Shown here: positions 48,342 to 64,000 of the stretch, one piece after another
Position numbering within the stretch: position 1 is the first letter of the stretch
Layout: every line of letters starts with the position of its first letter
Assembly: GCA_964545895.1 (NCBI GenBank)
Contig: CAZJHS010000001.1
Location: 33,167-97,166 of the forward strand
Direction of reading: 5' to 3'
DNA length: 64,000 nucleotides
Origin: an uncultured Chitinophaga sp.
GTDB taxonomy: Bacteria > Bacteroidota > Bacteroidia > UKL13-3
The notes under the pieces: model-generated
Seen by the model: only the letters and a program-made list of their open reading frames with translations
Told to the model about the DNA's origin: nothing
The model's database searches: none
Position numbers and translations under genes: made by a program

Positions 48342-48527
48342 ACGATTTTATTTTTTGATTGGGAGAGTGAAGATAAAAACGTAACTTATTAAAAACAAGC
48401 AATCTGTGTTAAATTTTATGTTTTGGTGGATAAAGTTAAGCCCCTGATTGGCTGTAAATTGACAAATATCCTGTGCATGGGCGCCTAATTCTTATATTTT
48501 TGCGCCACTTAATAAAAAACATCACAC

Positions 48528-49922
48528 ATGGAATTTAGAATAGAACATGACACCATGGGCGAGGTAAAAGTACCTGCCGACAAGTATTGGGGCGCTCAAA
48601 CAGAACGTTCACGCAATAACTTTAAAATTGGTCCTGAGGCTAGCATGCCTAAAGAGGTTATTCATGCTTTTGCTTATTTAAAGAAAGCTGCAGCACATGC
48701 CAATTGCGATTTAGGCGTTTTATCTGCCGAAAAACGCGATTTAATTAGCCAAGTGTGTGATGAAATTTTAACAGGTGCACTTGATGCCGAGTTTCCATTA
48801 GTAATTTGGCAAACAGGTAGCGGAACTCAAAGCAACATGAATGCCAACGAGGTTATTGCTTACCGCGCACATGTTTTAACTGGAGGTAAATTAACTGACG
48901 ACACTAAAGTTCTTCACCCAAATGATGATGTAAACAAATCACAATCATCAAACGATACCTACCCTACTGCTATGCATATTGCAGCATACAAAATGGTGGT
49001 AGAAACTACCATTCCAGGTATATTGAAGTTACGCAATACACTTGCTAAAAAAGCCGAAGCTTTTAAAGATATTGTTAAAACTGGTCGTACACACTTTATG
49101 GATGCTACACCATTAACATTAGGACAAGAGTTTGGTGGCTACGTGCAGCAATTAGATAATGGCATACGTGCATTAAACAATGCATTAGAAATGGTAAAAG
49201 AATTAGCTTTAGGTGGTACTGCAGTTGGTACAGGCTTAAACGCACCAAAAGGATACGATGTTTTAGTAGCTAAAAAAATTGCTGAATTTACTGGTCATCC
49301 ATTTGTTACTGCACCAAATAAATTTGAAGCATTAGCAGCACACGATGCCATGGTTGAATTGAGTGGTGCATTAAAACGTGTAGCAGTTAGTGCCATGAAA
49401 ATTGCTAATGATATTCGTATGTTATCATCAGGCCCACGCAGTGGTATTGGCGAAATTGTAATTCCTGATAACGAACCAGGTTCATCAATTATGCCAGGTA
49501 AAGTTAACCCAACACAACCAGAAGCTATGACTATGGTAGCTGCGCAAGTTATGGGTAATGATGTGGCTGTAACTATTGGTGGTAGCAATGGTCATTTTGA
49601 ATTAAACGTATTTAAGCCATTAATTGCTGCTAATGTTTTGCAAAGTGCACGTTTAATTGGTGATGCTTGTGTTAGCTTTAACGATAAATGTGCTGAAGGT
49701 ATTGAGCCAAATAATGATATTATTAAACGCCATTTAGAAAATAGCTTAATGCTTGTTACTGCTTTAAATCCACACATTGGATACGAAAAAGCAGCTAAAA
49801 TTGCTAAAACTGCACATAAAGAAAACAAAACTTTACGTGAAGCAGCCATTGAGTTAGGTTACTTAACCAACGAGCAATTTGATGCTTGGGTAAGACCAGA
49901 AAACATGGTTGGAAATTTGTAA
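48528..49922 (+). CDS. fumC: Class II fumarate hydratase
   Basis: Signature [13 protein letters not shown] (the fumarate lyase SS-loop). Length 464 aa. Confidence 0.95.
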
Positions 49923-49954
49923 TTCGTCTGATTTATTTCAACTTAGATGATAAA

Positions 49955-49988
49955 CGCGGGCTGCCTTTGGGCAGCCCGCGTTATTTTT
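49955..49988 (+). terminator. Rho-independent terminator after fumC
   Basis: cgcgggctgcctttgggcagcccgcgttattttt. Confidence 0.8.
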
Positions 49989-49995
49989 AGTATAC

Positions 49996-50646
49996 TTGCC
50001 CTACATGGAAATGCTTGAACCCATTTGGAAAGGACTTATTACCGGATTGTTGTTTACCCTAACATTCGGTACCGTGTTTTTTTCGCTTATACAAACCAGT
50101 ATTAAGCGCGGACATGCTAAGGCTTTATTTATTGCCGTTGGCGTATTGTGTAGCGATGCTTTTTACATTGCAGTTTCTTTATTGGGTACTACGTTTATTG
50201 CCGATGAAATGCATAAATACGATATGCATATTCGCATTATCGGATTTTCGTTTTTAGCATTTTTGGGCATTCGCTCCATCATAAAAAAAGAAAAAGATCA
50301 TACTGATGATGCTGCTCCAACAGAGCGCAAAGATGTATTGTATATACTAAAAGGTATTATGCTTAACAGCATCAATCCTATGGTACTAATAAGTTGGATG
50401 GGGGTTACTACTTATGTAAAATCAACAAGTTTATTTAACAGCAACCAAACACTATTTTATTTTACCATTGTATTAAGTACCATGTTTGCAACTATGTTTG
50501 GTATTGTATACTCAGCCGGAAAATTGCGCAAAGTACTATCAGCACAAAACCTTCATAGGTTAAATGTATTTAGTGGCGCAATATTTTTAGTGTTTTCGTT
50601 GGTAATTATTTACCCAGTTTTAATCAAGTGGCTTGGGTTGATGTAA
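49996..50646 (+). CDS. LysE/RhtB-family amino-acid exporter
   Basis: About 210 aa with six TM segments. N-terminal LITGLLFTLTFGTVFFSLIQ is typical of the LysE family. Confidence 0.65.
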   Translation: MPYMEMLEPIWKGLITGLLFTLTFGTVFFSLIQTSIKRGHAKALFIAVGVLCSDAFYIAVSLLGTTFIADEMHKYDMHIRIIGFSFLAFLGIRSIIKKEKDHTDDAAPTERKDVLYILKGIMLNSINPMVLISWMGVTTYVKSTSLFNSNQTLFYFTIVLSTMFATMFGIVYSAGKLRKVLSAQNLHRLNVFSGAIFLVFSLVIIYPVLIKWLGLM

Positions 50647-50658
50647 ACCCTTTACAAC

Positions 50659-51243
50659 CTACTTACTCCAACGTAACGTTTTTATCATGTGCATTACATC
50701 CTTTTTTAAATGCACTAACACAGGAGCTACACTATCGGGGTTTGTTTGTGTGTTAAAATAAAGTGCACCACGCATGTAATTATGTACGCTATCGGTTACA
50801 TAAAACTGAAAGTTTGTAGCTGTATTTCCACTTAGCTCATACACCATTCCGCTTAAGTTTTCATTTTCAATGTAGGTCTCAAAAATTTCATCGGCTTTTA
50901 TGGTGTGCTTATAAACTAAGGTACGCGCATCTTCTGCTAAACGCTGCAAATCTTGTGACGATTTTACTTGATCAAAACTTAAATGTAAAGTGGCATTATA
51001 AGGTTGGTAGTACACATTGTACCAGCATTTATTTTGAGCCATGCTAAAGTCGGGCAATACGGTTGCATAGTCTGGTATTTCAAAACTAAAACCGCAGTTA
51101 TTATGGTGGGTTTGATACTTAGTTTGGGTAAACTCAAACCGCTGAAATCCCCTTGGTTTAGGAGTATACTCTTGACTGCATGCAGTAACAAATACTGCCG
51201 TAAATATCAAAAATAAAAAATTATAGGGTGTTGCTTTCTGCAT
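50659..51243 (-). CDS. gldD: Gliding-motility lipoprotein GldD
   Basis: About 190-aa lipoprotein (lipobox VTACS) immediately downstream of a CBS/CorC-domain gldE-like gene, itself downstream of ssb and mutY. This mutY-ssb-gldE-gldD arrangement is the one recalled for Flavobacterium johnsoniae. Assignment rests on synteny and size, not on a verified alignment. Confidence 0.55.
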   Translation of the reverse strand: MQKATPYNFLFLIFTAVFVTACSQEYTPKPRGFQRFEFTQTKYQTHHNNCGFSFEIPDYATVLPDFSMAQNKCWYNVYYQPYNATLHLSFDQVKSSQDLQRLAEDARTLVYKHTIKADEIFETYIENENLSGMVYELSGNTATNFQFYVTDSVHNYMRGALYFNTQTNPDSVAPVLVHLKKDVMHMIKTLRWSK

Positions 51244-52582
51244 TTAATAATTCAACTTTAACACGTTTAATTCTGCGCTTATCGGCCGCTTCAATCACAA
51301 ATTTAAAATCCTTGTAAATTATCTCGTCACCTTGTTTAGGCATCTCCTCTTCTAGCTCCAATAACATACCTCCAATGGTATCTGCTTCTTTACGTATATC
51401 TTCAAAAATATCAGTATCAATTTCCATAAACCTACACATATCGTTTATCAGCATTTTAGCTTCAAACACATAAGTAGTTTCGTTTAAGCGCGAGTAAACG
51501 GTTTCGTCCTCATCAAACTCATCATTAATCTCGCCAAAAATTTCTTCCAAAATATCCTCCATGGTAACAATACCTTGTGTACCTCCAAACTCATCAACCA
51601 CAAAAGCCAAATGCACGCGTTTACTCTGAAAATCTTTTAGCAAATCGTCAATCTTTTTACTCTCGGGTACAAAGTATGGCTTGCGCACTAAAGTTAACCA
51701 ATTAAAGTCATCCTCTTTGTGCATGTGTGGCAGCAAATCTTTAATGTAAAGAATACCATTTATGTTATCCAAGTTTTCTGAATAAACGGGTACGCGTGAG
51801 TAGCCCCAATCGCTAATTTTTAATAATAACTGCTTAAATGGCAAATCAGATTTGATGGCTGATATATCAGGACGTTGACGCATAATTTGCTTCACGTTAA
51901 TATTCCCAAAGTTTACAATAGATTTAAGAATAATTTTTTCCTCTTTTGGGGTATCAGCTTCGTTAGTTATATCAATGGCATGTGTTAACTCATCAACCGA
52001 TAATACGTGGCCTTTTTTAGTTACACGTTTATCAATTATTGATGTTGATTTTACCAATACATACACAAAAGGTTTAAGCAATTTATTTAGTGTATACATA
52101 GGAAACGCTACAAAGCGCGCCACCTTAACATTATTTTGCGATGCATATATTTTGGGCATTACCTCGCCAAAAAGCACCAATAAAAAGGTAACTAAAACTA
52201 CCTCAATTAAAAAACCAACAAATGGAGCTTCGCTAAAATTAAATAAAATATCAACTGCTACGGTTGATACCATAACAATAGCAATATTTACAAAGGTGTT
52301 TGATATGAGAATTGTGGCTAATAAATGCTTGGGATGCGACAGCAAATAGCTAATGTATTGGGCCGTTCTTGATTCATCGCTATCCGTTAGTTCATCTATT
52401 TGCAATTTAGATAAACTAAAAAATGCATTTTCTGAACTAGATATAATTGCTGAACTAATAATAAATAATACAATTACACCCAAACAGATAAATACGGTTA
52501 CCCACTCAGCTGGGGCTAAAGCGGTGTTAAACACGGCTAACATTAAATTGACCGGAGGCTCTGATGCTAAACTACTTTCCAA
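51221..52582 (-). CDS. gldE: GldE (DUF21/CNNM transmembrane domain + tandem CBS + CorC_HlyC transporter-associated domain)
   Basis: N-terminal four-TM DUF21 domain, a CBS pair, and a C-terminal CorC/HlyC domain (…EDIRKEADTIGGMLLELEEEMPKQGDEI…). Lies between ssb and gldD. Confidence 0.6.
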   Translation of the reverse strand: MESSLASEPPVNLMLAVFNTALAPAEWVTVFICLGVIVLFIISSAIISSSENAFFSLSKLQIDELTDSDESRTAQYISYLLSHPKHLLATILISNTFVNIAIVMVSTVAVDILFNFSEAPFVGFLIEVVLVTFLLVLFGEVMPKIYASQNNVKVARFVAFPMYTLNKLLKPFVYVLVKSTSIIDKRVTKKGHVLSVDELTHAIDITNEADTPKEEKIILKSIVNFGNINVKQIMRQRPDISAIKSDLPFKQLLLKISDWGYSRVPVYSENLDNINGILYIKDLLPHMHKEDDFNWLTLVRKPYFVPESKKIDDLLKDFQSKRVHLAFVVDEFGGTQGIVTMEDILEEIFGEINDEFDEDETVYSRLNETTYVFEAKMLINDMCRFMEIDTDIFEDIRKEADTIGGMLLELEEEMPKQGDEIIYKDFKFVIEAADKRRIKRVKVELLNAESNTL

Positions 52583-52610
52583 AGTTTTATTTTTAAGTTA
52601 CAAATTGGTA

Positions 52611-53069
52611 TTAAAACGGTAAATCGTCAATACCATTGGCATTGTTTGCGGCAGTAGATGTAGCTTGTGGACCTTCTGTTTCTGCAGATGGTTGTCCATT
52701 TTGCACACCTTCTGTATTATTAGGGTTACTGCGCGAACCCAACAAAGTTAAATTATTCGCTCTAATTTTTATGCCACTGCGGTCAACTCCCTGTTGGTCA
52801 GTCCATTTTTCTGTTCTTATTTTACCTTCAATGTAAACAGTTGATCCTTTGTGCAAGTATTTATGGGCAATATCGGCCAAGTTATCCCAAAGCTCTACCC
52901 TATGCCATTCGGTATCAGTTCTGCGTTCACCAGTTCTGCTATCTGTATAGGTTTCGCTGGTTGCTACACTTATGGTTAAAACTCTACGGGTATTGTTTTG
53001 TCCTAATACACGAGGTTGCTCGGGGTCGCGACCTAAATTGCCAATTAAAATTACTTTGTTTACACTCAT
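52611..53069 (-). CDS. ssb: Single-stranded DNA-binding protein
   Basis: OB-fold N-terminus MSVNKVILIGNLGRDPE. Gly/Gln/Asn-rich linker. Acidic C-terminal tip DDLPF. Confidence 0.95.
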   Translation of the reverse strand: MSVNKVILIGNLGRDPEQPRVLGQNNTRRVLTISVATSETYTDSRTGERRTDTEWHRVELWDNLADIAHKYLHKGSTVYIEGKIRTEKWTDQQGVDRSGIKIRANNLTLLGSRSNPNNTEGVQNGQPSAETEGPQATSTAANNANGIDDLPF

Positions 53070-53108
53070 TGTTAAGTAGTTTGAATTTATTAAATAGAAT
53101 AGTTGTTG

Positions 53109-54164
53109 TTAAGGCAATATAGTATTTATGAAACGCTCCAACAAGCGTGGCACTGCAAAATCATGTAATTTAGTAACTGCCACCTTTAAAAAGCCTTGTT
53201 CTGCATTGGGTTTAATGTTTTTTCCACCAGCTATCCAAAATGTGGCATATATGGTTTGATGCGTTAGTTGGTGCTTGGTTTGAAATCCGATAGCAAGCTG
53301 AGTAGGCGTTGTATCAAACTTATTGGCTAACTCTGGATGAGCCAATAATTCATCAGCATAAAGCACAGGTTGGCTGGTTTCAATTAAAGGAAACTCGAAC
53401 AAATTATTCCAAATACCCTCGTTACTGCGTTGGCGTATGTAGGTGTTACCCAATTTGTCTTCCACAAAAATATAATTTAAAAACCTATCAATTGGCTTAC
53501 GCTTAGCCGATTTAACGGGATACTGATACACCTCGTTATTTTTATATGCCATGCACTGCAAACGCAACACACAAGTCTCACATTGGGCCTGTTTAGGTTT
53601 ACAAACTGTGGCACCAAGTTCCATGATAGCTTGGTTGTGCGTGGCTGCATCCTTCAAATACAGTACTTCATGGGCTAACTCGCTAAATATTTTTTTGCCT
53701 TGCGTACTATCAATTGGTGTATCAATAGCAAACACCCGCGAAAGCACACGGTATACATTGCCATCAACCACAGCAACAGGCTCATTAAAAGCAAAAGAGG
53801 CAATTGCAGCAGCTGTGTATGGACCTATTCCCTTCAGTTTTATTAATTCTGCATATGTATTGGGAAATTCGCCTTGTAGTTCTTGATGTATAATTCGCGC
53901 TGTTTTTAACATATTGGCTGCCCTATTATAATAACCTAAGCCTTGCCAAAGTTTCATTACCTCATCATCATTGGCTAAAGCCAAATCAACCACAGTAGGA
54001 TATTTATCAGTAAATTTTTGGTAGTAAGGTAAGCCTTGTTCCACACGTGTTTGCTGAAGAATAACCTCCGACAGCCAGATGTGATAGGGATTTTGTGTGT
54101 TACGCCACGGCAAATCCCGCTTATTTTTTTTGTACCAATTTATAATGGATGCTAGTGCTGTCAT
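53109..54164 (-). CDS. mutY: A/G-specific adenine DNA glycosylase
   Basis: HhH-GPD domain (LKGIGPYTAAAIASFAF). 4Fe-4S cluster loop CKPKQAQCETCVLRLQC. C-terminal NUDIX-like domain. Confidence 0.9.
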   Translation of the reverse strand: MTALASIINWYKKNKRDLPWRNTQNPYHIWLSEVILQQTRVEQGLPYYQKFTDKYPTVVDLALANDDEVMKLWQGLGYYNRAANMLKTARIIHQELQGEFPNTYAELIKLKGIGPYTAAAIASFAFNEPVAVVDGNVYRVLSRVFAIDTPIDSTQGKKIFSELAHEVLYLKDAATHNQAIMELGATVCKPKQAQCETCVLRLQCMAYKNNEVYQYPVKSAKRKPIDRFLNYIFVEDKLGNTYIRQRSNEGIWNNLFEFPLIETSQPVLYADELLAHPELANKFDTTPTQLAIGFQTKHQLTHQTIYATFWIAGGKNIKPNAEQGFLKVAVTKLHDFAVPRLLERFINTILP

Positions 54165-54320
54165 AAGTTTTTGCCCAAGCGAAAATAGTACTCTGATAAT
54201 TTTTTACATCTTTTAGTGCATTTTGTTTTGAAATTCATACATTTGCAACCCGCTTAAAATTAAGTAGGAACAACACAAACATTTGACTTTAAAGTTATTA
54301 ATAGTTAAAAACCGTAGAAA

Positions 54321-54641
54321 ATGACAAAAGCAGAAGTAATTGCAGAAATCGCAACAAAAACAGGAATTGAGAAAGCACAAGTTCAAGAAGCAGTTGAGTC
54401 TTTCTTTAAAGTAGTAAGAACCTCGATGACAGAAGGAAAAAATGTTTATTTCCGCGGTTTCGGTAGCTTCGTAATTAAAAAGAGAGCTAAGAAAATTGCT
54501 CGTAACATCAGCAAAAACACTGCAATGGTGATTGATGAGCATTTTATCCCAAGTTTTAAACCAGCTAAAACTTTTGTAGACAAAGTTAAAAAAAGCGAAA
54601 CGGTTAAAACTAAAGCAGCTAAATTAGCAGCTAAAGCTTAA
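54321..54641 (+). CDS. HU-family DNA-binding protein with a lysine/alanine-rich C-terminal extension
   Basis: MTKAEVIAEIATKTGI…FRGFGSF… is the HU/IHF fold. The tail KTKAAKLAAKA is typical of Bacteroidetes HU. Confidence 0.88.
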   Translation: MTKAEVIAEIATKTGIEKAQVQEAVESFFKVVRTSMTEGKNVYFRGFGSFVIKKRAKKIARNISKNTAMVIDEHFIPSFKPAKTFVDKVKKSETVKTKAAKLAAKA

Positions 54642-55459
54642 TGAAAATTACCAGCAAACAAATTTTACTTGTTTCTATTGCGGCAGCTGTTGTAATAACA
54701 CTGTTTGTAATGGGCTACAAAACTCCTTTTGCATCTAACAGTGCAAAAGGAGTTGCTGTAGTTAGCAAGCAATTTGATGCTGACGCATTTTTATCTGAAC
54801 AAAAAAGTAAACTAACTCCTGCACAACAAGAGTTGGTTAAAACACTTGAAAGTGATAAAAATAACAAAGAAAATTTAGTGAAGTTAGCCAACCTTTGGGA
54901 TTCGTTAAATGTTACGTATGGTGGTGCTTATTATACTTATAAGCTTGCCGAACTTGAACAAAACGAAATAACTTGGTTTGCTGCCGGAAGTAAATTTTAC
55001 AACGTTGCCAACTTTAGTAGTGATAGCCTTATGGGTACCACTGCTATTCAAAAAGCAAAAGAAGCTTACACCAAAGTAATTGAGTTAAATCCTAAAAACC
55101 TTCAAGCTAAAAATGCCTTGGCGGTTTGTATTATACAAGGAGATAATGACGTGATGAAAGGCGTAGGCATGCTAAAAGAAGTAGTAGCAACGGATTCGAA
55201 CAATGTTCAAGCTATTTTCACCCTTGGAATGCTCTCTATTCAGAGCAACCAATTTGATAAAGCACAAGAGCGTTTCGAAAAATTAATAAAAATAGAGCCA
55301 TTTAATGCCGAATATTACTTTTATTTGGCGGAAGTTTATGCAAAAGGTGGAAATACCCAAAAGGCAATTAAAACCTACGAAACTTGCAAAACCCTCGTTA
55401 AAGACAAAGAGGCTAAAAAGGAAATAGAAACAATTATTAACAAACTAAATAAGCTGTAA
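54641..55459 (+). CDS. Tetratricopeptide-repeat protein
   Basis: Signal peptide or TM anchor. Several TPR-like helical repeats (AEYYFYLAEVYAKGGNTQKAIKTYE). The start overlaps the HU stop by 1 nt (TAATG). Confidence 0.6.
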   Translation: MKITSKQILLVSIAAAVVITLFVMGYKTPFASNSAKGVAVVSKQFDADAFLSEQKSKLTPAQQELVKTLESDKNNKENLVKLANLWDSLNVTYGGAYYTYKLAELEQNEITWFAAGSKFYNVANFSSDSLMGTTAIQKAKEAYTKVIELNPKNLQAKNALAVCIIQGDNDVMKGVGMLKEVVATDSNNVQAIFTLGMLSIQSNQFDKAQERFEKLIKIEPFNAEYYFYLAEVYAKGGNTQKAIKTYETCKTLVKDKEAKKEIETIINKLNKL

Positions 55460-55461
55460 TT

Positions 55462-55551
55462 ATGCCAAGCGGAAAAAAAAGAAAAAGACATAAGATCGCT
55501 ACGCACAAACGTAAAAAGAGACTTCGTAAAAACAGACATAAGAAAAAGTAA
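55462..55551 (+). CDS. Tiny, extremely basic protein MPSGKKRKRHKIATHKRKKRLRKNRHKKK (29 aa), a candidate ribosomal protein bS22 (AURKAIP1/COX24-family). Absent from the ORF track.
   Basis: ATG 3 nt after the TPR stop. 29 codons, 20 of them K/R/H. It resembles the small basic proteins annotated as AURKAIP1/COX24-domain or bS22 in Bacteroidetes and Actinobacteria. Family assignment is from memory. Confidence 0.55.
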   Translation: MPSGKKRKRHKIATHKRKKRLRKNRHKKK

Positions 55552-55661
55552 TTTTTCTTAATGCTGCTATACATATCTTTTTTGAGTTAGAAAAGATCTT
55601 ACAAAGTAAACCGTTCACCATTGGGCGGTTTGCTGTTTTTTAAAACACACGTGTTGATATT

Positions 55662-57221
55662 GTGAACTACGAACTGGTAATTAATAGTCATCAGAACGGT
55701 GGGGTTGATATTGCTTTACTTAAAGACAAAAAGCTGATTGAACTGCACCATGAAAAAGCTGACAGCAATTTTGCGGTAGGAGATGTATACTTAGGTACAG
55801 TTAATAAACTGATGCCTGGGCTTAATGCTGCATTTATTGATGTTGGCCATGAGAAAGATGCCTTTTTACATTATTTAGATTTAGGTCCGCAAGTAAAATC
55901 GCAACTTAAGCACATTAAGTTACTGCGAAGTAATCCACACACCAGTGCATGGCCTGCACTAAACCAAAATGAACCCGACATTGAAAAAACGGGAAAAATC
56001 AATCAGGTGCTTCAACGCTTGCAACAAGTTGTTGTGCAAGTTACCAAAGAGCCCATCTCAAACAAAGGCCCACGTTTAACATCACAGCTTTCTTTAGCTG
56101 GCAGGTACGTGGTATTGATGCCTTTTGATCAGGTAGTATCTGTTTCCAAAAAAATTGTAAAAACCGAAGAGCGTATCAGACTTAAAAAACTGGTGCAAAG
56201 TATTAAGCCCGAAAACTTTGGTGTTATTGTGCGCACTGTTGCCGAAAACCAAAGTGTTGAAGAGCTTGAAAACGACTTAAAGGATTTACTAAAACGTTGG
56301 GAGCATCTGTGTACTCAACTAAAAACTGCCGTTCCTGGTCAGAAAATTTTGGGTGAAAGCGAGCGTACGCTTACGCTAGTGCGCGATTTGTTAAACGATG
56401 ATTTTACTGGAATTTACGTTAACGACAATTATTTACTAAATGCCATTAAAGGCTATGTAGCCAAAAAAGCTCCCGAGTTGGAGAAAATTGTGAAACTACA
56501 TACTGGCAAACAAACAATTTTTGATTTTTACGGAGTTGATAAACAAATTCGTAGTGCGTTTGGTAAAGAAGTAAACTTTATGGGTGGCTCTTATTTAATT
56601 ATAGAACACACCGAAGCTCTTCATGTAATTGATGTAAACAGTGGAAGCATTGCTGGCAAAGAAATTAACCAAGACGAAAATGCACTTAAAGTAAACCTAG
56701 AGGCTGCTGCTGAAATTGCACGCCAATTGCGTTTGCGCGATATGGGTGGCATTATTGTGGTTGATTTTATTGATCAAAAAACTGCTGGAAACAAGCGTTT
56801 GGTTTACGAACGTTTGAAAGATGAAATGAAAGCTGACAGGGCCAAGCACAAAATTTTACCTATGAGTCCGTTTGGCTTGGTACAAATTACGCGTCAGCGT
56901 GTGCGCCCCGAAATGAATGTGGTAAATACCGAAAAATGCCCTACTTGCGATGGCACAGGCGAAATTACCAATAGCATTGTAGTGGTTGATGAAATTGAAA
57001 ATAAGCTGAAGTATTTTGTAGAGAACATGAACATGAAAGGTAGCATTACCATCGAAGTTCATCCTTACATTTATGCTTATTTTACCAAAGGTTTCTTCAA
57101 CTCTATTCGTTTTAAATGGTTATTTAAATACAAACGTTGGATTAAAGTTAATCCGGTAAACTCGTTACACTTTGGCCAATACCGCTTTTTAAATGCGCAG
57201 GCCGAAGAAATCTCTATCTAA
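55662..57221 (+). CDS. Rne/Rng-family ribonuclease (RNase G/E catalytic domain), GTG start
   Basis: S1 domain. DNase-I-like catalytic motifs (…ALHVIDVNSG…; DMGGIIVVDFID). Zn-link CPTCDGTG. Confidence 0.88.
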   Translation: MNYELVINSHQNGGVDIALLKDKKLIELHHEKADSNFAVGDVYLGTVNKLMPGLNAAFIDVGHEKDAFLHYLDLGPQVKSQLKHIKLLRSNPHTSAWPALNQNEPDIEKTGKINQVLQRLQQVVVQVTKEPISNKGPRLTSQLSLAGRYVVLMPFDQVVSVSKKIVKTEERIRLKKLVQSIKPENFGVIVRTVAENQSVEELENDLKDLLKRWEHLCTQLKTAVPGQKILGESERTLTLVRDLLNDDFTGIYVNDNYLLNAIKGYVAKKAPELEKIVKLHTGKQTIFDFYGVDKQIRSAFGKEVNFMGGSYLIIEHTEALHVIDVNSGSIAGKEINQDENALKVNLEAAAEIARQLRLRDMGGIIVVDFIDQKTAGNKRLVYERLKDEMKADRAKHKILPMSPFGLVQITRQRVRPEMNVVNTEKCPTCDGTGEITNSIVVVDEIENKLKYFVENMNMKGSITIEVHPYIYAYFTKGFFNSIRFKWLFKYKRWIKVNPVNSLHFGQYRFLNAQAEEISI

Positions 57222-57310
57222 TTCTGTTATCTTTTATTGGAAAAAATAAGGTTGTGCTTTGTGCGCAGGCCCAATTTTTGTACTAAAGCGTACCGCAAAG
57301 GCAAAAAAAT

Positions 57311-57352
57311 AAGCCGGCACTGGTAATCAGTATCAATGCCGGCTTGTGATTT
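57311..57352 (+). terminator. Terminator-like hairpin after the RNase gene
   Basis: aagccggcactggtaatcagtatcaatgccggctt followed by gtgatttt. Confidence 0.5.
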
Positions 57353-57538
57353 TATATCAATGAAAAAAGTATTGTACGTGTATAATAATAAAAACAGTGC
57401 CAACTTTAAATATCACCCAATATATTTTATAACGCACTAATTTACAGTATATTTAATTACACTAGTTTAGCACATACATAGCAAGTGCATATTTTTAAAT
57501 ACACTTGTAGTACATTTTTAGACACCCATTTTGTACAC

Positions 57539-57865
57539 ATGACTATACAAGAAGCACAAAACACCGTTGACCAATGGATTAAAACCACAGGCGTTCGTTA
57601 TTTTAACGAGTTAACCAATACTGCCATGCTAATGGAAGAAGTGGGCGAAGTGGCCCGCATTATGGCCCGACAATATGGTGAACAAAGTTTTAAAGCCAGC
57701 GATAAAGAAGTAAACTTAGCTGATGAAATGGCCGATGTACTTTTTGTATTGATTTGCTTGGCTAACCAAACAGGCATTAACTTAACCGAAGCGCTAGAAA
57801 AAAACCTAGACAAAAAAACCAAACGCGATGCTACCCGCCACAAGGAAAATGATAAGTTGAAATAA
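57539..57865 (+). CDS. MazG-like nucleotide pyrophosphohydrolase (all-alpha NTP-PPase)
   Basis: EVGEVARIMAR…ADEMADVLFVLICLAN is the MazG EExxE/D motif region. The start is taken at the internal Met (MTIQEAQ…). Confidence 0.75.
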   Translation: MTIQEAQNTVDQWIKTTGVRYFNELTNTAMLMEEVGEVARIMARQYGEQSFKASDKEVNLADEMADVLFVLICLANQTGINLTEALEKNLDKKTKRDATRHKENDKLK

Positions 57866-57922
57866 AGAGCTAAAAGATTTAGACACCTGTCATGGGTAAC
57901 ATCAAGTAAAAAGGTAATTCAA

Positions 57923-58444
57923 TTATTCAAAATATTGTTTCATTACTGGTAAGAGGTGTGCTTCAAAGTTGTTTATAATTTCTTTCTGTATCCTTTTTCT
58001 ATCTTTAGGCTGCATTGCACACAATTCATATTGGCTAATCAATTTGATTGTTGAACCCATCCGAATATAAACCTGCTTTATGGCAAAACCACCATCATAC
58101 AATCCAATTTTGTAAACGGTTTGCTTGTCTCGTAAAATCAAATACCAATAGTGTAAGCATACACAAGGCTTATTCTCTAGGCAAATAGGAGAATCTATTT
58201 CTTCATAAACAAAAATGACTTGTTGATTATTCAAATATTCGGAAATTTCATTAGTAGTTAATTTAAATTCTGCGTGTTCCTTACCAAACTTTGTCATTGC
58301 CTGATAATATTTTGAAGAATCACTCCAATTCTGTTGAGGAAAATACCCTTTTGAAGAAACAGTACTATGCCCCCAACCGAACGAACAAGCACAACCTTGT
58401 AAAAATATCATCAGGCAAAGTCCATATAAAATTCGCATTAGCAT
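57923..58444 (-). CDS. Hypothetical lipoprotein immediately downstream of the RHS toxin gene; candidate cognate immunity protein
   Basis: Signal peptide plus lipobox (MLMRILYGLCLMIFLQGCA). The start is taken at Met17 of the 189-aa ORF so it does not overlap the RHS stop (58455). No recognisable family. Confidence 0.45.
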   Translation of the reverse strand: MLMRILYGLCLMIFLQGCACSFGWGHSTVSSKGYFPQQNWSDSSKYYQAMTKFGKEHAEFKLTTNEISEYLNNQQVIFVYEEIDSPICLENKPCVCLHYWYLILRDKQTVYKIGLYDGGFAIKQVYIRMGSTIKLISQYELCAMQPKDRKRIQKEIINNFEAHLLPVMKQYFE

Positions 58445-58454
58445 ATTTATTAAA

Positions 58455-61400
58455 CTAATGTATTGACCAACCATAAAGAGTTTTTTGAGCATTAATTACT
58501 CCTATCAGACTACCAGTAAGCAATTCGAATGGACTGTTATGTTTCAACCCTAAATATAAAGTTCTACTCATAAGTCTAAGATCTGCACCCATAGTCTTAT
58601 AGGATCCTAATAAATATTTGGCACCCACACTAATCCCTTTACCTAGATATTCTGCATCATGTAAATATCCAGCATATTCTTTCCAACTCCATCCGTCAAC
58701 CATACCCATATAATCATCCCATCCAGCACCGCCTCGTAGATTTGGATTCCACCAGCGTGGATTTTTCCCTAAATAACTCGGATAACTCCGATTTACATTA
58801 CCCTTTATCGAGGCATTATCAACTTTAGCATTTGGGTTTTTAGAGGTCCATTTATCCATATATGCTTTACATTTAGCGGCTAATTTATCTTCCCAATGTG
58901 TGAATTTATCAACTACGTTCGCAATGTCACCCAAATTTCCTAAAGCCCCTAATGTATATCCAAAGTTTTCTAGTCCACTGTTTTTACTCCAATTCCAAAT
59001 ACCATTCCACCCACTTGTACTACTATAGCTGGCCATACCCAAACTAAAGTTAACACCAGTTTGCCCACCAGTATATATATTAGTTCCTACACTATTAACA
59101 AAAGAACCTGCAAAAATAGCAGCAGTGTTTGCACCTAACATACCTGAAGTTGCAACAGTACTTGCGGCAGCAACACTTGTTGCTCCCACAGCAGCTCCTG
59201 CTCCCATATAACCCCATGTTTTACCACTACTATAGTCCCATTGAAATGGATTAGCAGTACCATTTGCCATTGCACCTCCTTGCCATGCTCCAATATCAGC
59301 ACCGATTGCACTTGGCAACAATGCTAATGAAGCTCCAGCGGTAAATGGAGCTGCTATTAAAACAGCTGCTGTAAAAATAAAATCGCCACTAGGGTCAGTA
59401 TATTTAAGTGGGTTATTCCAGCAATAGCTATATCTATTAAAACTTTGGGTATTATCAGGAGCTTGTATATAATTATCGGGGCTAAGTATACGGCCCATAA
59501 CGGGGTCGTAAATACGGCCATTCATGTTTATTAAACTAAACTCTACTAAATGCTCGTGAAAAGTATAACCTCTATCGGTAATATTTACAGCCGAAAATGG
59601 ATTTAATTGGTAATCCCAGGTAATAGGATCGCGCGGGCGGCCCCAAGCATCGTAGCTTCTGGTTTCAATTATAGTACCTGCTTGGTTGGTTATGGCCATT
59701 ATGCTCCCTTGGTAATCATTGTGTAAATATACAATTTCTTGTCCTTCGGCAGTTTTTTTATGTATGGCAAATGCCTCTCCCTCTGCATATAAGTAGGTTA
59801 GCTCTACTCCTGCCTTAATTTCCATACTCGCACTATTAATGTAACGCTTGGTGTAGGTGGTTAATCCGTTCTCCTTTTTTACCGCACAAATTCTTTCATC
59901 ATCAAGGCCGTAATGCAACTTATATTCTAAATTGGCTTGTACAATTAATGCCAATTTACCTATACTATTATAGGTGTAATTGTGGTCGTCTAAGCTACCT
60001 TGTGGCACTCTGTAAGGGCTTATAGTTTCATCAAACGTGTGTTTTGTTACAGCATTTAATTTATTGTTGTGATAAGTAAACTCTTGTAAGCCACCATTGC
60101 TGTTTGAGGTGATGTTACCGTTGTTTGCATATCCATAAGACTTTGAATCGAAAACTACAGCTGGGTTGCCAAGGTGTGAGCTTGTTACTTCTGTCAAGCG
60201 ATCAAGGTTATCATAATTAAATGTTTCATGATTATTAACATCAGGAAAAAATCTAGTATTTAAATTCCCTGTTAAATATTCGAAATCGTATTGCACATTA
60301 AGCGCTTTAGTAGTCGTTCCTTTTATTGATTCAATTGAAGTTAATAATTCATCATCATTATAACTTGTAGTGGTTTCAAAACCGTTGCCATACGTAAATT
60401 GGTTGGTTACTCCAGCTGCTGTGGTACTGTTTTTTTCCCAAAGTAAGTTATTATCCCCATCGGTAATTGCGATTACATCAGTGCCGAACCCGTATGAATA
60501 AGACAATGCAATGTTGGGATAACTAACGCTTTGCAATCTTAAGTTTGCATCATACAAATAACCAGTGTTATAGTTGATACTATTCCCCACAACCTCACTC
60601 ACACTTTTTAACGCCCCATGAGTGGTGTAGTATTCGTACTCCTTTTTATGTGTAATTGTACCATCTACTTTTAGTTCTTCGTAGTTTAATTTGCCATTTG
60701 CTGCCGTTCCATTACTATTTATATAATTGTAATTATACTCCTTAGCCATGCCAAATTTCTTTATCACTCGGCCTAAGTCATCGTAATGAAAATTAAACTC
60801 ATTACCATTAGCATCCTTTTGGGCTAATAACTCGCCAAAGGCATTATAGTCATAAAGTGTCTCACCAAAATTAGGGTCGTTTAACTTAATCTTGTTTAAC
60901 TGATCGTTGTAATTTATGGTAATAACTGAGCCGTTTGAGGCGGTTTCAATTGGCTTTAAATGTGCTCCATATTTATACGTAATTGTACCTCCATTATCAG
61001 TTACCTGCACCACATTCCCCATGGCATCAAGTGTGGTTTGCTTTTGTTTATTTAAACCGTAATTCTCTGTTTTAACTAAACCATTGTATGCTACTCGATA
61101 GGTCTCTATGCTGTTTTGATATTTGGTTTTTATTAGCCTATTGTAATCATCATATTGATGCCAATTCCATTTAACTCCAGATGGTTGTTGGGCATCATAA
61201 ACATTAGACTCTTTTATTAATCGTCCATCAGCATCATAAACCCATTCTTGTAGGTGTATTTTACCGCCAAATCCTTTTGTTTCTTGCTTTATTTTTAGTC
61301 CTCTTGCATCTAAATAAGTAACAGCTTCCTCACCTAAGTTGGTTTGAGAGGTAACCTTACTATGAGTACCCGTTGGTGTATTGTTAGTTAAAACATTTGT

Positions 61401-64000
61401 TGACTGCTTGTAATTACCACCAGGGTAATTTGTTTTATAAGGCACACCCCAACTATTATACAATGTAGTTATTACTTGTCCATCATAATCTGTTGTACTT
61501 GTTAAATTACCATAAATTAGTTCGTAAGAGACTTGTTTAGTATGGCCAAGTGCGTTGGTAATAACTGTAGGGAACTTACCATTATCATATGTAATGGTCT
61601 GTTTTCTAAATACATTAGGAGTGGTATTATTTGCACTATCAAGGGCTGTAGAAAACACATTACCGTATTTATCATACTCGGTAATCTCTTTAACATAGTA
61701 GTGTAAGCTGTATTTATAACGTTCTTTTGCAACAACCAACCCTTTAGCATTATAGCTATATTCAACTTCATCTAAGTGAGGTTGAGTAATGTTTTTGTGA
61801 GTATTGGTGGTGCGTGACTTAATTAAAGAAGCTGGTAACCAAGTACCATATTTTCCGTATAAGTTATCTATTGATGTGGTGTGTAATACAGCGCTATTGC
61901 CTGTATTACCCCAAGTTGTTGCCGAATGAATTAAATTACCATTTATGTCATACTCCGCGCATGTAATTTTTACTACACCAGTTTGATAATTTGTTTCAGT
62001 TGAATAGCTGTTGTAACTAAATACTGTTTTATTTAATGTGGTATGCACTTGGCTGTAGTCTAACTCTGTTTTACTTATTAAATCTTGAACTGTTGAGAAA
62101 GGAGATAATTTATCAGTACAATGATTATAAGCCCTAGCTATTTTTAAATCTAACTTATACGGCAACTCTACATTCTGTTCAAAGTTGTTTATTACAGTAT
62201 TATTTTTACCTGTTTGTAAGCTCTTGATTATGGCAGTTTCTTTAAAACCCATTAGGCCTCTACCGTGAGTAAAATAGAGTAAGTTTTTGTAGAAATACTC
62301 ATTAGTAACATCAGGAAAACCAGTTGTTTTATAGCTCATTTTCTTTACCAAATAAATTGGTAGGCTAACAGCATAGGCCATACTCATTTTATCAGGGTTT
62401 ACTGTTTTAGAATAAGTTGTGCTATTTGTTAATTTGTCATACTCAAAGCCGAAACTATGAACTGCGGTATACTGAACAAGAGAGACTCGCTTAGATTTAA
62501 GTGGAATTTTCTCTAGCATATATGATTGATTCATTAATATGATTGTATTTGCACCTTGCAAAATATCAGCCTTTCCATCGCCATCAAAATCGCTAACTAA
62601 GTTGTAATTATCAGAATATCTGTTACCATTAGTTGTCGTATTCGTTGTGCCTAAATACTGCTTATTAAAACCAAATCCTGTCGAGTAATAAATATTTACA
62701 CTATTACCAACATGTAGATCTGCTGGAGTAGTAGCATGATTATGTCGTTCTATAATGTCTGTTTTTCCATCTCCATTAAAATCACCTAAATCAAAATTAA
62801 GTGAACTAAATGCTGTATGATCATAAGTGCCACAATAGTTAATATTAAAATTATGTAAAAACCATAAATTAGTTGCATTGTATTCAACAAAGTTTTGCCC
62901 TGTTGAATATGCAATTCGCCATGAATTATTAACAAAATAAAGCAAATCAGTTTTGCTATCGCCATTAAAATCAGCCAATCGTATATATTTATGGTACAGG
63001 GTAGGAAATTGGAGGGTACCATCTCCATATATATGTTGCATACCAGTAAGTGTACTATTGGTTTCAATTATTTCTGTTTGGTCTGTATTTTTCTTCACAA
63101 ACATAAAATCTAGCTTTCCATTGCCATTGAAATCCATTGGATAAAAATCAATATTATCCAACATTCCATAATCAAGGTATCTGCTTGGTATAGACGAATT
63201 AAATCTGCGTGTACTTAAATACAAATGAAATGCGGTTCTATTCTCTGGTATAACTTCTGTTTTTGATGCAGCATTACAACTACCTTTCAAATCACGCTTT
63301 CCTTGCGTTTCTCGTTCAATTAAATCAAGTAAACCATCTCCGTCTACATCAGCCAACATTGGCATAATCATAAGTAATTTATTAAACTGATCTGTTGAGC
63401 TTACATGAAGACTTTGTGGATTTGCAAGAACTCTTTGAGGATAAATATTTTCAATTACCGCATAGTCTAGTTTTGTTGTAAATTTAGACTGAACCAAATG
63501 ATACTTAAATGTCATTTGATTTAAATAGTACTTTGTAAACTCAGAACAAATATAGCCCCCATCGTCATATGTGCTAGTCTGACTTATATTATCTAAGACT
63601 TGAAAAACAACATCATCATCTCCATCAGCATCAGCATCGCCTACCATAACTGAAGTTATATTATCGAATGGCAAATTATACTGCATAAGTAAAATAGGAG
63701 CCCCAGTTGGATTAATCCTGTAAGCTCTAAGTTTATTCCCCTTACCAAGTATTTTATTCTCGTATGGATTTAATACCCCGTCAATAGCTATTAAGTCTTT
63801 TTTTCCATCTCCATCCAGATCACCTGTTAATCTGAGATATTCTAAAGAGGTGTAAACGTTAATATTGTTTCGCTGAATAGATTCATCAGCTGTCCAATTA
63901 ATCGTAACGGGAACCAAAGACTCATTTGCTCCATTGCTCTCCTGCACTTGAGTTAAATAGGTATTTACATCATCATTAGTATAGGTAAACACATATTCTC
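58455..64000 (-). CDS. RHS/YD-repeat polymorphic toxin; the N-terminus lies beyond the window. Integrin-like FG-GAP/VCBS Ca-binding repeats, a long YD-repeat shell, a DPSGD autoproteolysis motif, and an unrecognised ~308-aa C-terminal toxin domain.
   Basis: N-proximal repeats DxDGDGKxDL (DLDGDGKKDLIAID, DFNGDGKTDII, DFDGDGKADIL). Many YD repeats (YDANLRLQSVSY, YDAQQPSGVKW, YNAFGELLAQKDANGNEFNFHYDDLGR). RHS core terminus …NPLKYTDPSGDF at ~59383-59397. The tail begins with a Gly/Ala-zipper hydrophobic stretch. Confidence 0.85.
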   Translation of the reverse strand, partial: EYVFTYTNDDVNTYLTQVQESNGANESLVPVTINWTADESIQRNNINVYTSLEYLRLTGDLDGDGKKDLIAIDGVLNPYENKILGKGNKLRAYRINPTGAPILLMQYNLPFDNITSVMVGDADADGDDDVVFQVLDNISQTSTYDDGGYICSEFTKYYLNQMTFKYHLVQSKFTTKLDYAVIENIYPQRVLANPQSLHVSSTDQFNKLLMIMPMLADVDGDGLLDLIERETQGKRDLKGSCNAASKTEVIPENRTAFHLYLSTRRFNSSIPSRYLDYGMLDNIDFYPMDFNGNGKLDFMFVKKNTDQTEIIETNSTLTGMQHIYGDGTLQFPTLYHKYIRLADFNGDSKTDLLYFVNNSWRIAYSTGQNFVEYNATNLWFLHNFNINYCGTYDHTAFSSLNFDLGDFNGDGKTDIIERHNHATTPADLHVGNSVNIYYSTGFGFNKQYLGTTNTTTNGNRYSDNYNLVSDFDGDGKADILQGANTIILMNQSYMLEKIPLKSKRVSLVQYTAVHSFGFEYDKLTNSTTYSKTVNPDKMSMAYAVSLPIYLVKKMSYKTTGFPDVTNEYFYKNLLYFTHGRGLMGFKETAIIKSLQTGKNNTVINNFEQNVELPYKLDLKIARAYNHCTDKLSPFSTVQDLISKTELDYSQVHTTLNKTVFSYNSYSTETNYQTGVVKITCAEYDINGNLIHSATTWGNTGNSAVLHTTSIDNLYGKYGTWLPASLIKSRTTNTHKNITQPHLDEVEYSYNAKGLVVAKERYKYSLHYYVKEITEYDKYGNVFSTALDSANNTTPNVFRKQTITYDNGKFPTVITNALGHTKQVSYELIYGNLTSTTDYDGQVITTLYNSWGVPYKTNYPGGNYKQSTNVLTNNTPTGTHSKVTSQTNLGEEAVTYLDARGLKIKQETKGFGGKIHLQEWVYDADGRLIKESNVYDAQQPSGVKWNWHQYDDYNRLIKTKYQNSIETYRVAYNGLVKTENYGLNKQKQTTLDAMGNVVQVTDNGGTITYKYGAHLKPIETASNGSVITINYNDQLNKIKLNDPNFGETLYDYNAFGELLAQKDANGNEFNFHYDDLGRVIKKFGMAKEYNYNYINSNGTAANGKLNYEELKVDGTITHKKEYEYYTTHGALKSVSEVVGNSINYNTGYLYDANLRLQSVSYPNIALSYSYGFGTDVIAITDGDNNLLWEKNSTTAAGVTNQFTYGNGFETTTSYNDDELLTSIESIKGTTTKALNVQYDFEYLTGNLNTRFFPDVNNHETFNYDNLDRLTEVTSSHLGNPAVVFDSKSYGYANNGNITSNSNGGLQEFTYHNNKLNAVTKHTFDETISPYRVPQGSLDDHNYTYNSIGKLALIVQANLEYKLHYGLDDERICAVKKENGLTTYTKRYINSASMEIKAGVELTYLYAEGEAFAIHKKTAEGQEIVYLHNDYQGSIMAITNQAGTIIETRSYDAWGRPRDPITWDYQLNPFSAVNITDRGYTFHEHLVEFSLINMNGRIYDPVMGRILSPDNYIQAPDNTQSFNRYSYCWNNPLKYTDPSGDFIFTAAVLIAAPFTAGASLALLPSAIGADIGAWQGGAMANGTANPFQWDYSSGKTWGYMGAGAAVGATSVAAASTVATSGMLGANTAAIFAGSFVNSVGTNIYTGGQTGVNFSLGMASYSSTSGWNGIWNWSKNSGLENFGYTLGALGNLGDIANVVDKFTHWEDKLAAKCKAYMDKWTSKNPNAKVDNASIKGNVNRSYPSYLGKNPRWWNPNLRGGAGWDDYMGMVDGWSWKEYAGYLHDAEYLGKGISVGAKYLLGSYKTMGADLRLMSRTLYLGLKHNSPFELLTGSLIGVINAQKTLYGWSIH

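Follow-up and report, generated by a model that had tools for sequence, protein, structure and literature searches.

The window, as we call the whole stretch of 64,000 nucleotides analysed here, ends in 5.5 kb that form the 3' part of a TcB/TcC-like gene for an RHS polymorphic toxin (58455..64000, minus strand); the gene runs past the window edge. It is followed on the same strand by a gene for a small lipoprotein (57923..58492), the putative cognate immunity protein. The giant reading frame of the toxin gene (58455..63992, minus strand) was already recognized in an earlier note and indeed comprises 1845 amino acids, being open up to the edge; its stop codon lies at 58455-58457. On contig L001, which is 99.95% identical over 16 kb, the full gene encodes 2118 amino acids, and only there, beyond the window edge, a Sec signal peptide (MKQLSIKLLLSILLTSSLYA) and an SpvB domain are visible. 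Inside the window FG-GAP/integrin-like beta-propeller repeats (62751..63821, minus strand; amino acids 58-414 of the in-window translation) are matched by Pfam FG-GAP_3 (E 9.5e-16, four stretches) and FG-GAP (E 1.6e-9). The YD/RHS-repeat shell (59655..62750, minus strand, with approximate bounds given by the interval from propeller to core) is matched by Pfam RHS_repeat PF05593 at amino acids 1049-1077 (E 6e-13) and by TIGR01643 (E 2.5e-7), and the product from L001 also shows a TEN_YD-shell match. The Rhs repeat-associated core, i.e. the aspartyl autoprotease plug, covers amino acids 1447-1536 (59385..59654, minus strand; NCBIfam TIGR03696 with 47.6 bits, the cut-off being 32.5) and ends in ...YTDPSGD. 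The terminal DPSGD motif (59382..59396, minus strand) was found where the core end had been placed before, and the context of an arginine and two aspartates, GRIYDP...SPDNY...DPSGD, is present in the sequence. Cleavage is predicted just after DPSGD from the position of the corresponding site in the mosquito protein SGS1, which is cut at 2733/2734 (PMC9935623).

With FG-GAP_3, RHS_repeat and Rhs_assc_core all matched, the canonical polymorphic toxin layout proposed earlier is borne out. Judged by the order of signal peptide, SpvB domain, propeller, YD shell and Rhs core, the protein is an RHS polymorphic toxin of the TcdB/TcaC class. Like the TcB/TcC-type toxins of this export class (Zhang et al. 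2012, PMC3482391) it combines these parts with a variable C-terminal toxin and an immunity gene, and orphan cassettes occur in related loci. It differs from them by a hydrophobic module inserted between core and variable toxin, by a conserved small gene with YD motif and T9SS-CTD located just upstream of the RHS gene outside the window, and by the lack of a TcA partner, since no TcA-like gene was seen in the available sequence. We found no machinery that would secrete or deliver the RHS protein. The locus had also been called the most accessory-looking one in the window, but its composition is not unusual (GC 0.33-0.38 versus 0.335-0.40 in the rest of the window).

The last 308 amino acids of the RHS protein were matched by no Pfam or NCBIfam family, so this region is unrecognised by curated families as was supposed, and a sequence search of the PDB returned weak matches to mosquito SGS1 and SGS4 alone (E 0.012 and 0.11). 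In the earlier note they were taken as one pore-forming module. Comparison with related proteins, however, divides them into two modules (residues 1-153 and 154-308), and the glycine-zipper half turned out to be common to RHS proteins with unrelated tails. This Gly/Ala-rich hydrophobic pre-toxin module (58923..59381, minus strand), which includes the ANGTANPFQWDYSSGKTW loop, begins at the residue right behind DPSGD and contains 35% alanine plus glycine and only 6 charged residues among 153. It recurs at 50-69% identity in about 50 RHS proteins from Bacteroidota, which combine it with at least four unrelated tails; 36 matches cover residues 1 to ~153 alone, their tails belonging to unrelated families. 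It is present at 53 genome loci, nearly all from Bacteroidota. Among 45 genome loci the tails are of the His...Cys (37), PLA2-like (4), HExxH (3) or other (1) type. In an orphan cassette (P0003) only the last 66 amino acids of the module are shared with the upstream RHS protein (88% identity) and then this tail type follows; by this pattern the switch point is a recombination junction, and the tail is the true polymorphic and exchangeable toxin tip. Assignment to the glycine-zipper pore-forming toxins was considered and rejected, as the window sequence gave no match to a curated glycine-zipper family and the downstream genes follow the tail and not the module; among 63 module homologues a single one matches Pfam Gly-zipper_YMGG (E 0.017).

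A profile of 28 modules found only SGS4 (9on3_A, E 9.5e-7) and SGS1 (8fjp_A, E 4.2e-6) in the PDB, and on these profile matches the module is homologous to the helices that SGS1 of mosquitoes packs within its Rhs shell. In this protein the core and the cleavage site are followed by hydrophobic helices, which lie inside the shell, and then by a separate toxin domain, and the segment behind the Rhs cleavage site of SGS1/SGS4 was described as "daisy-chained, putative transmembrane helices" (PMC9935623). Both in the SGS proteins (PDB 8fjp, 9on3) and at our locus a Gly-rich multi-helix segment with the pattern ANxxxNPxKWD(Y/W)xSxxTW stands directly behind the autoprotease site and a separate C-terminal toxin domain comes next, the similarity spanning SGS residues ~2735-2926. 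SGS1, however, has about three repeats of the unit and a Tox-SGS end, whereas at our locus a single clear unit precedes a PLA2-like tail, and the SGS proteins are eukaryotic while the locus represents a bacterial toxin–immunity system. Glycine-zipper segments are also known from the delivered toxins Tde1 (PMC10240207) and EsxX (PMC12744356), where a Gly-rich hydrophobic segment on the toxin, or constituting it, is implicated in membrane insertion or translocation. This likeness is a descriptive one, and in contrast to these toxins a conserved module of 153 amino acids is placed here between Rhs core and enzymatic tail.

The polymorphic tail (residues 154-308 of the C-terminal region; 58458..58922, minus strand) consists of a divergent PLA2-like domain with C-terminal amphipathic helices. 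Its Trp/Tyr-rich composition was correctly noticed before (8 tryptophans and 11 tyrosines in 155 residues), but the domain is less undescribed than had been thought, because it appears as a remote homologue of PF08398 in which the His-Asp pair is kept. A candidate Ca2+-binding loop, YLGKNP (58758..58775, minus strand), contains the nearly invariant Y50, G52 and P55 (tail numbering), with the second glycine of the classical YxGxG not conserved. The candidate catalytic His-Asp-x-x-Tyr is represented by HDAEY (58647..58661, minus strand), with H88 and D89 invariant in 48 sequences. On the following helix a second aspartate, Asp114 (58581..58583, minus strand), is nearly invariant; in the same alignment Y92 and D114 are conserved to at least 90%, and we infer that D114 is equivalent to the PLA2 aspartate.

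The link to phospholipases was obtained in steps. Among 1.8 billion proteins the tail profile finds 113 at E<1e-3, and 32 of 107 relatives found with it match PF08398 (Phospholip_A2_4) at E<0.01. A consensus drawn from the wider family of 48 aligned sequences reaches 28.3 bits and exceeds the PF08398 gathering cut-off of 23.9, and in the PDB all 28 matches of the corresponding profile are parvovirus VP1 with its YLGP...HD..YD site (best E 0.015). When the seven closest tails were compared by hhalign with nine PF08398-positive relatives, a profile–profile homology with 97.5% probability (E 7.9e-12, 103 columns) and aligned motifs resulted through these bacterial intermediates, most intermediate sequences falling just below the PF08398 cut-off. 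The window tail itself has no Pfam match at E<=1, and none is obtained with a consensus of the ten sequences closest to it, which means that the PLA2 link rests on the intermediate sequences. An AlphaFold2 model of the tail reached a pLDDT of 89.9, and Foldseek returned no significant match of the tail to viral models. With respect to a known toxin fold, named in the earlier note as evidence against its reading, sequence profiles come near to one but the fold search does not. On this profile evidence the tail is a remote and very divergent homologue of the parvovirus-type PLA2-like domain PF08398. The order Y-x-G-(P)-x-N-P, P-x-x-x-x-D-x-A-A-x-x-H-D-x-x-Y-D and a later A-D is common to the tail and the VP1u PLA2 of parvoviruses. 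The differences are that the window tail lies under all Pfam thresholds, that it has a 27-amino-acid insertion with a beta-hairpin between loop and HD, and that it possesses an extra N-terminal helix pair besides the C-terminal amphipathic helices.

Two other lipolytic types were compared. Tox-PLA2 domains (1kp4 or Streptomyces type) are defined by DxC[ST] and CxxHxxxYxN motifs and disulfide cysteines (PMC3482391). The tail resembles them as a PLA2-superfamily toxin domain that ends an RHS protein, with lipid hydrolysis being putative here, but assignment to this type was rejected since the 308 amino acids contain one cysteine and no CxxH. A Tle-type lipase was rejected as well, because HxKxxxxD is absent and a lone GISVG is not conserved among relatives. 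Russell et al. reportedly described in 2013 such T6SS lipase effectors together with periplasmic or lipoprotein immunity (Tle/Tli). Common to Tle/Tli and the present locus is a proposed phospholipid-degrading periplasmic effector with adjacently encoded exported or lipid-anchored immunity, whereas T6SS context and conserved GxSxG or HxKxxxxD motifs are lacking here, and carrier and fold are different.

The lipoprotein comprises 189 amino acids, or 173 if read from the ATG at 58444, and in the longer reading its ORF overlaps with the toxin stop codon. The lipobox cysteine (FLQGC) is invariant. It was correctly said to have no recognisable family, as neither Pfam nor NCBIfam gave a match, and its own family is very small, with five matches among 5.8 billion proteins. 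In five loci a member stands behind a complete tail of the present type and in three more behind a 3' remnant, and none was found in any other context. Wide conservation in genomes lacking RHS genes, which would speak against a role in immunity, is clearly not seen. Orphan copies occur behind toxin remnants beside housekeeping genes, and in related loci orphan toxin–immunity cassettes form arrays. Orphan immunity genes behind toxin remnants are a hallmark of polymorphic toxin systems. Downstream of other tail types unrelated genes are found, and downstream of more distant PLA2-like tails mostly unrelated lipoproteins come next. Thus the lipoprotein co-varies with the tail type, and the earlier proposal of an adjacent immunity gene has held up; strong comparative evidence argues for the lipoprotein as the cognate immunity protein of the tail. 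Immunity genes track the tail and not the glycine-zipper half.

We therefore consider it probable that the product of the locus is a polymorphic RHS toxin of TcB/TcC-like build with hydrophobic module and PLA2-like tail, accompanied by a lipoprotein for immunity, and the tail is probably lipolytic rather than pore-forming. In the proposed mechanism the Rhs core would cleave itself after DPSGD, which would leave the C-terminal region loose inside the cocoon. Exit through the outer membrane of the producer may need the small upstream YD-motif/T9SS-CTD protein. Once the toxin has reached a neighbouring cell of the Bacteroidota, its hydrophobic module would insert into a membrane, on whose periplasmic face it would hold or thread the PLA2-like domain; there this domain could hydrolyse phospholipids in a Ca2+-dependent manner. 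The periplasm-facing lipoprotein would bind the tail and in this way protect the producer and its kin.

A reading in which the tail is homologous to PLA2 without being a phospholipase, acting as a non-catalytic lipid or membrane binder or as an enzyme on another substrate and killing by a different route, is unlikely. It would fit the atypical Ca2+ loop with YLGKNP instead of YxGxG, the position of the window tail below every Pfam threshold, the outcome of the Foldseek search and the replacement of Tyr92 by His and of Asp114 by Asn in two relatives. On the other hand, an invariant His-Asp in 48 diverse sequences together with nearly invariant Y50, G52, Y92 and D114 is the pattern expected if catalysis is retained, and lipoprotein or otherwise exported immunity candidates suit a periplasmic or membrane target. 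We regard as rather improbable that the glycine-zipper region itself is the toxin, forming pores or depolarising the membrane, with the hydrophilic half being accessory or for targeting and the lipoprotein blocking the pore former. This disagrees with a module that is so similar across unrelated tails while each tail type has other genes downstream, and with orphan cassettes that retain just the last ~66 amino acids of the module. Moreover, the tails bear invariant residues of catalytic type (HD here, H...C and HExxH elsewhere), and the single glycine-zipper match among the homologues argues in the same direction.

The architecture of SpvB, propeller and RHS shell is also that of insecticidal TcB/TcC proteins, the hydrophobic module is common to mosquito SGS proteins and parvovirus PLA2 domains work on eukaryotic membranes; an anti-eukaryotic factor of Tc-toxin or SGS type, with the lipoprotein as an unrelated neighbour or an accessory protein (chaperone or release), could be imagined from this. 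It is very improbable in view of a lipoprotein family confined to positions behind this tail type, including the orphans behind remnants, of the arrays of orphan toxin–immunity cassettes and of the lack of a TcA-like gene in the available sequence.

As RHS toxin–immunity pairs are common, the bacterial toxin–immunity locus taken as one unit is no surprise. However, a toxin tip that is missed by every curated library can be assigned, through its relatives, to the parvovirus-type PLA2-like superfamily. The RHS toxins of Bacteroidota would thereby gain a class that targets lipids and is paired with a lipoprotein for immunity. The hydrophobic segment of SGS proteins was reported to be without similarity to the C-terminal regions of Tc toxins or teneurins, and what was earlier known from mosquito SGS alone is now seen as a large bacterial family located between core and swappable toxins; this offers a testable idea of the role of the SGS helices and a bacterial model for it. 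More tentatively, the Gly/Ala module may be a general and self-contained device for membrane insertion or translocation that is stored in the RHS cocoon, is common to Bacteroidota RHS toxins and, via ancient gene transfer, mosquito SGS, and brings interchangeable enzymatic tails (PLA2-like, His/Cys, HExxH) into the target membrane or across it, the whole cocoon being exported on the dedicated upstream YD-hairpin/T9SS-CTD adaptor. If true, device and adaptor would give RHS toxins a delivery route that is new, none being established for this class in the phylum. The upstream YD-motif/T9SS-CTD gene suggests a possible surface route for Sec-exported RHS cocoons that have no T9SS signal of their own.

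The RHS gene (58455..63992, minus strand) encodes 1845 aa inside the window and its frame remains open up to the window edge. A metagenome contig (L001, JGI 3300036956) with 99.95% identity to window 47923-64000 reaches past this edge and contains the full-length gene of 2118 aa, including an SpvB domain and an N-terminal Sec-type signal peptide (MKQLSIKLLLSILLTSSLYA/Q). Within the window Pfam detects FG-GAP_3 (E 9.5e-16), FG-GAP and RHS_repeat (E 6e-13) in this ORF, and the Rhs-associated core covers aa 1447-1536 (NCBIfam, 47.6 bits vs. a cut-off of 32.5) and ends at 59382-59396 (minus strand) with ...NNPLKYTDPSGD. The combination of signal peptide, SpvB, integrin-like propeller and RHS defines the ‘TcdB/TcaC’ class of polymorphic toxins (Zhang et al. 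2012, PMC3482391), and the window's gene is a member of it; polymorphic RHS toxin–immunity pairs are an already known kind of system. Neither Pfam nor NCBIfam contains a family for the 308 aa that follow the core, and the sole matches among PDB sequences, those to the mosquito salivary gland surface proteins SGS1 and SGS4, are weak (E 0.012 and 0.11) but led to the SGS relationship described here. The sequence content reported in the earlier note, i.e. the RHS ORF, the end of its core and a tip and downstream ORF of no recognisable family, is borne out by these searches. The base composition of the toxin locus is ordinary and displays no anomaly, and the rest of the window contains neither another RHS core or module nor another tail or lipoprotein copy.

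The C-terminal 308 aa, previously taken as one single module, consist of two. Among 5.8 billion proteins this query has 62 matches; the named ones come from Bacteroidota and are annotated as ‘RHS repeat-associated’ or hypothetical. Upon re-alignment 36 of the 62 cover only residues 1 to ~153 with 50-69% identity and diverge completely beyond this point. The remainders cluster into at least four unrelated tail families of ~150 aa each, and a Pfam scan of all 63 C-terminal-region homologues assigned neither the module nor any of the tails to a family. Type A is a large family marked by a conserved His...Cys pattern (GHS...SCVxHTxRAL), type B is the window's own family (the query and six others), type C (P0011, P0015 and P0054) is related to type B, and type D is a small family with HExxH. 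The module profile detects 53 loci in 185,579 species genomes, nearly all from Bacteroidota; two loci, L027 and L033, which are labelled as Desulfitobacteriaceae and Clostridia MAGs, are probably mis-binned contigs carrying the Bacteroidota-type module. Complete tails are present at 45 genome loci (37 of type A, four of type C, three with HExxH and one of another type).

How these parts are exchanged can be seen at locus L003, where a 2210-aa RHS gene with module and type-A tail is followed by a 134-aa gene, an orphan cassette (P0003) and a homologue of the window's lipoprotein. The first 66 aa of P0003 are 88% identical to the module end of the upstream RHS protein and its remainder is a type-B tail with 58% identity to that of the window. 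Therefore, the exchangeable unit comprises the tail together with its downstream gene, and the Gly-rich module is part of the constant portion of the protein.

Several observations concern the other tips. Type-A tails (P0007-P0053; e.g., the last ~150 aa of L003:937-7569, L015, L031 and L058) show the conserved His...Cys(...His) pattern GHS...[NS]C[VS]xxxxxAL...HP, match no Pfam family and look like permuted enzymes of the papain, NlpC/P60 or LRAT type. The HExxH tails (P0036, P0044; L016, L030, L053) contain a zinc-metallopeptidase-like motif, follow the same module and have their own downstream genes of ~175-190 aa. In L005 an orphan cassette (7681-9090) adjoins the type-C cassette P0054, with which it has a 91-aa N-terminal Rhs-core stub in common (77% identity); its tip is Ntox23 without the Gly-rich module, so the module is not obligatory in this genome. 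L035:1-17905 holds a tandem of three RHS genes, complete or nearly so, that have the same module. In L009 (ENA ERZ27257342 k141_549601) several ORFs (2-466, 470-931 and 2043-2603) have in-frame TGA codons and translation of the gene call with table 11 does not give the database protein; here TGA probably codes for an amino acid.

The module (residues 1-153) contains 35% Ala+Gly and only six charged residues, with many small-xxx-small motifs and two or three transmembrane-like stretches; its loop ANGTxNPxKWDYSSGKTW is nearly invariant. When 28 modules are combined into a profile, just two entries match among all PDB sequences, namely SGS4 (9on3_A, residues 2739-2876, E 9.5e-7) and SGS1 (8fjp_A, residues 2735-2926, E 4.2e-6). 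The SGS proteins possess two or three tandem copies of a module-like unit (G..G..AN..WNPxKWD[WY]xSxxTW) whereas a single clear one is present in the bacterial module. In the cryo-EM structure of SGS1 the matching region starts directly after the Rhs autoprotease site 2733/2734, forms ‘daisy-chained helices’ that are almost wholly buried in the Rhs shell and are predicted to turn transmembrane, and is followed by a separate toxin domain, Tox-SGS; its authors reported no sequence similarity to C-terminal regions of Tc toxins or teneurins (PMC9935623). The parts of the window's protein are arranged in the same order as in SGS1. We infer that, once the protein has cleaved itself, the cocoon holds the module until release, when the module would insert into a membrane. 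A widespread Bacteroidota pre-toxin hydrophobic module, homologous to the SGS helices, is new.

The tail (residues 154-308, numbered here on its own) can be placed by its distant relatives. In ten tails of types B and C the residues P55, H88, D89, L117 and Y150 are invariant and Y50, G52 and Y86 nearly so. Their profile finds 113 proteins at E<1e-3 in 1.84 billion cluster representatives, and the distant ones read ...WYGxYLGPxNP...PPxxxLDYAAxxHDxxYD...GAL..N....AD..L, a pattern resembling the Ca2+ loop and HDxxY signature of the parvovirus VP1u phospholipase A2. Matches to this family (PF08398, Phospholip_A2_4) at E<0.01 occur in 32 of the 107 new proteins (best 6e-6). Among twenty relatives scanned singly every PF08398 match stays under the Pfam cut-off (best P0081, 23.7 vs. 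23.9 bits). An HMM consensus built from 48 aligned sequences, the window's tail among them, exceeds the cut-off with 28.3 bits (E 2.2e-6); one built from just the ten closest tails obtains no Pfam score. All 28 PDB sequence matches of this 48-sequence profile at E<=10 are parvovirus or AAV VP1 proteins (best E 0.015), aligned over YLGPxN...PxNxxDxAAxxHDxAYD. Since the seven closest tails give a profile that barely reaches classical PF08398-like sequences (P0081, E 0.074 in a 1.8-billion-sequence library), and none of its best remote matches hits Pfam individually, a profile–profile comparison was needed to close the link. With hhalign the seven type-B tails align to nine relatives (PF08398 at E<0.1) over 103 columns with 97.5% probability and E 7.9e-12, pairing Y-x-G/NP, HD and the later AD. 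All 48 aligned sequences have H88 and D89, and conservation reaches 90% or more at Y50, G52, P55, Y92, G100, D114 and K147. The AlphaFold2 model of the tail (pLDDT 89.9, pTM 0.85) comprises two N-terminal helices, a loop with a β-hairpin, the HD helix, the D114 helix and a long C-terminal helix; a Foldseek search with it against viral models gave nothing significant.

Homology of the tail to the PLA2-like superfamily is thus well supported by profile comparison, and catalytic activity is plausible. Identity with the Cys-rich Tox-PLA2 of the 1kp4 type, a domain previously recorded from RHS toxins, was rejected because its motifs are missing, and a serine-lipase reading of GISVG (window 58635-58649) proved to be a chance match as this Ser is not conserved in any relative. 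HExxH, HKD and any conserved serine-lipase motif are likewise missing from the tail. We found no paper on bacterial toxins of the PF08398 type; what is new is the placement of this unannotated family of tips in the parvovirus-type PLA2-like superfamily, together with its putative private family of lipoprotein immunity proteins.

This lipoprotein is encoded downstream of the toxin (57923..58492, minus strand) and has no family in Pfam, NCBIfam or PDB sequences. A single-sequence search returned itself and one homologue with 58% identity, and a five-member profile finds five proteins in 5.8 billion, all with an invariant lipobox Cys and a conserved C-terminus FExxhhPxhKxYF. This is clearly not the wide conservation in RHS-less genomes that, according to the earlier note, would speak against an immunity function. 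Members either follow a complete type-B tail immediately, in many cases overlapping its stop codon (window, L003, L006, L007, L067/L068), or come after a short 3' tail remnant or a truncated toxin gene with a module fragment only (L004, L063-65, L066), and these two groups take in every member that could be placed genomically. At L063:2282-2665 (also L064 and L065) an orphan lipoprotein gene beside CrcB, PAP2 and RNase P genes, with a Y1 transposase in L063, is preceded solely by a remnant encoding the last toxin-tail residues, ...NIQKLPHGWLIKHP. Downstream of the toxin–lipoprotein pair a second 3' toxin-tail remnant occurs in L067:1326-1592 and L068:995-1161, and L067 also has the start of a second lipoprotein gene; immunity genes with toxin stubs form a tandem array here. 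Behind type-A tails lie unrelated genes of ~140 aa and behind type-C PLA2-like tails those of unrelated lipoprotein-like proteins (...YSC, ...TGC, ...NSC), at one locus that of a protein of 361 aa with hydrophobic N-terminus. Judged by gene neighbourhoods, the distribution of the lipoprotein is the classical signature of cognate immunity, orphan immunity genes included, and an exported, lipid-anchored antidote fits a toxin that acts on a membrane from its periplasmic side.

The most likely reading, which we consider probable, is that the RHS cocoon would be exported by Sec and cleave itself after DPSGD, its cargo being the hydrophobic membrane-insertion module joined to a Ca2+-dependent PLA2-like enzyme. 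In the target cell the module may anchor or thread the enzyme at the membrane, where phospholipids would be hydrolysed, and the periplasmic lipoprotein would protect kin cells. Alternatively, the tail could be a PLA2 relative that is non-catalytic or acts on another substrate; with the HD pair invariant in the 48 aligned sequences we regard this as rather unlikely. That the glycine-zipper half is itself a pore former, in line with the earlier note, is disfavoured and appears unlikely, as it is the tail that immunity genes and recombination junctions follow. If the protein were a Tc-like toxin directed against eukaryotes, with a neighbouring gene unrelated to it, it would share its architecture with the ‘TcdB/TcaC’ class and its module with mosquito proteins; next to the strict association of lipoprotein and type-B tail this seems very improbable.

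On its other side the lipoprotein gene has a convergent MazG-like neighbour. A GldD lipoprotein gene (window ~50659-51243, minus strand; Pfam GldD_lipo on the identical contig) assigns the organism to the gliding, T9SS-bearing Bacteroidota. Just past the right edge of the window, L001:3199-3678 encodes a protein of 159 aa in which a signal peptide and a T9SS C-terminal domain accompany a lone YD-repeat motif (YTYDAAGNRITR). Homologues immediately precede the RHS gene in L003 (515-922) and in at least 13 of the genome loci; such ORFs are present in L012, L031, L034 (Flavobacterium polysaccharolyticum), L035 (twice), L039, L043, L044, L045, L049, L050, L051 and L052. Their products of ~135-230 aa combine a signal peptide with one YD motif (Y.YDAAGNRI.R), which a linker joins to a T9SS type-A C-terminal domain (YPNPT...). 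As the RHS protein lacks a T9SS signal of its own, the small protein may be a secretion or anchoring adaptor, and we suggest that it might dock on the RHS shell and couple RHS to the T9SS. No paper was found that links T9SS to RHS proteins or describes such an adaptor, and this conserved partner gene is a new side observation. In L035 two of the three tandem RHS genes are preceded by a YD/T9SS-CTD gene of their own.
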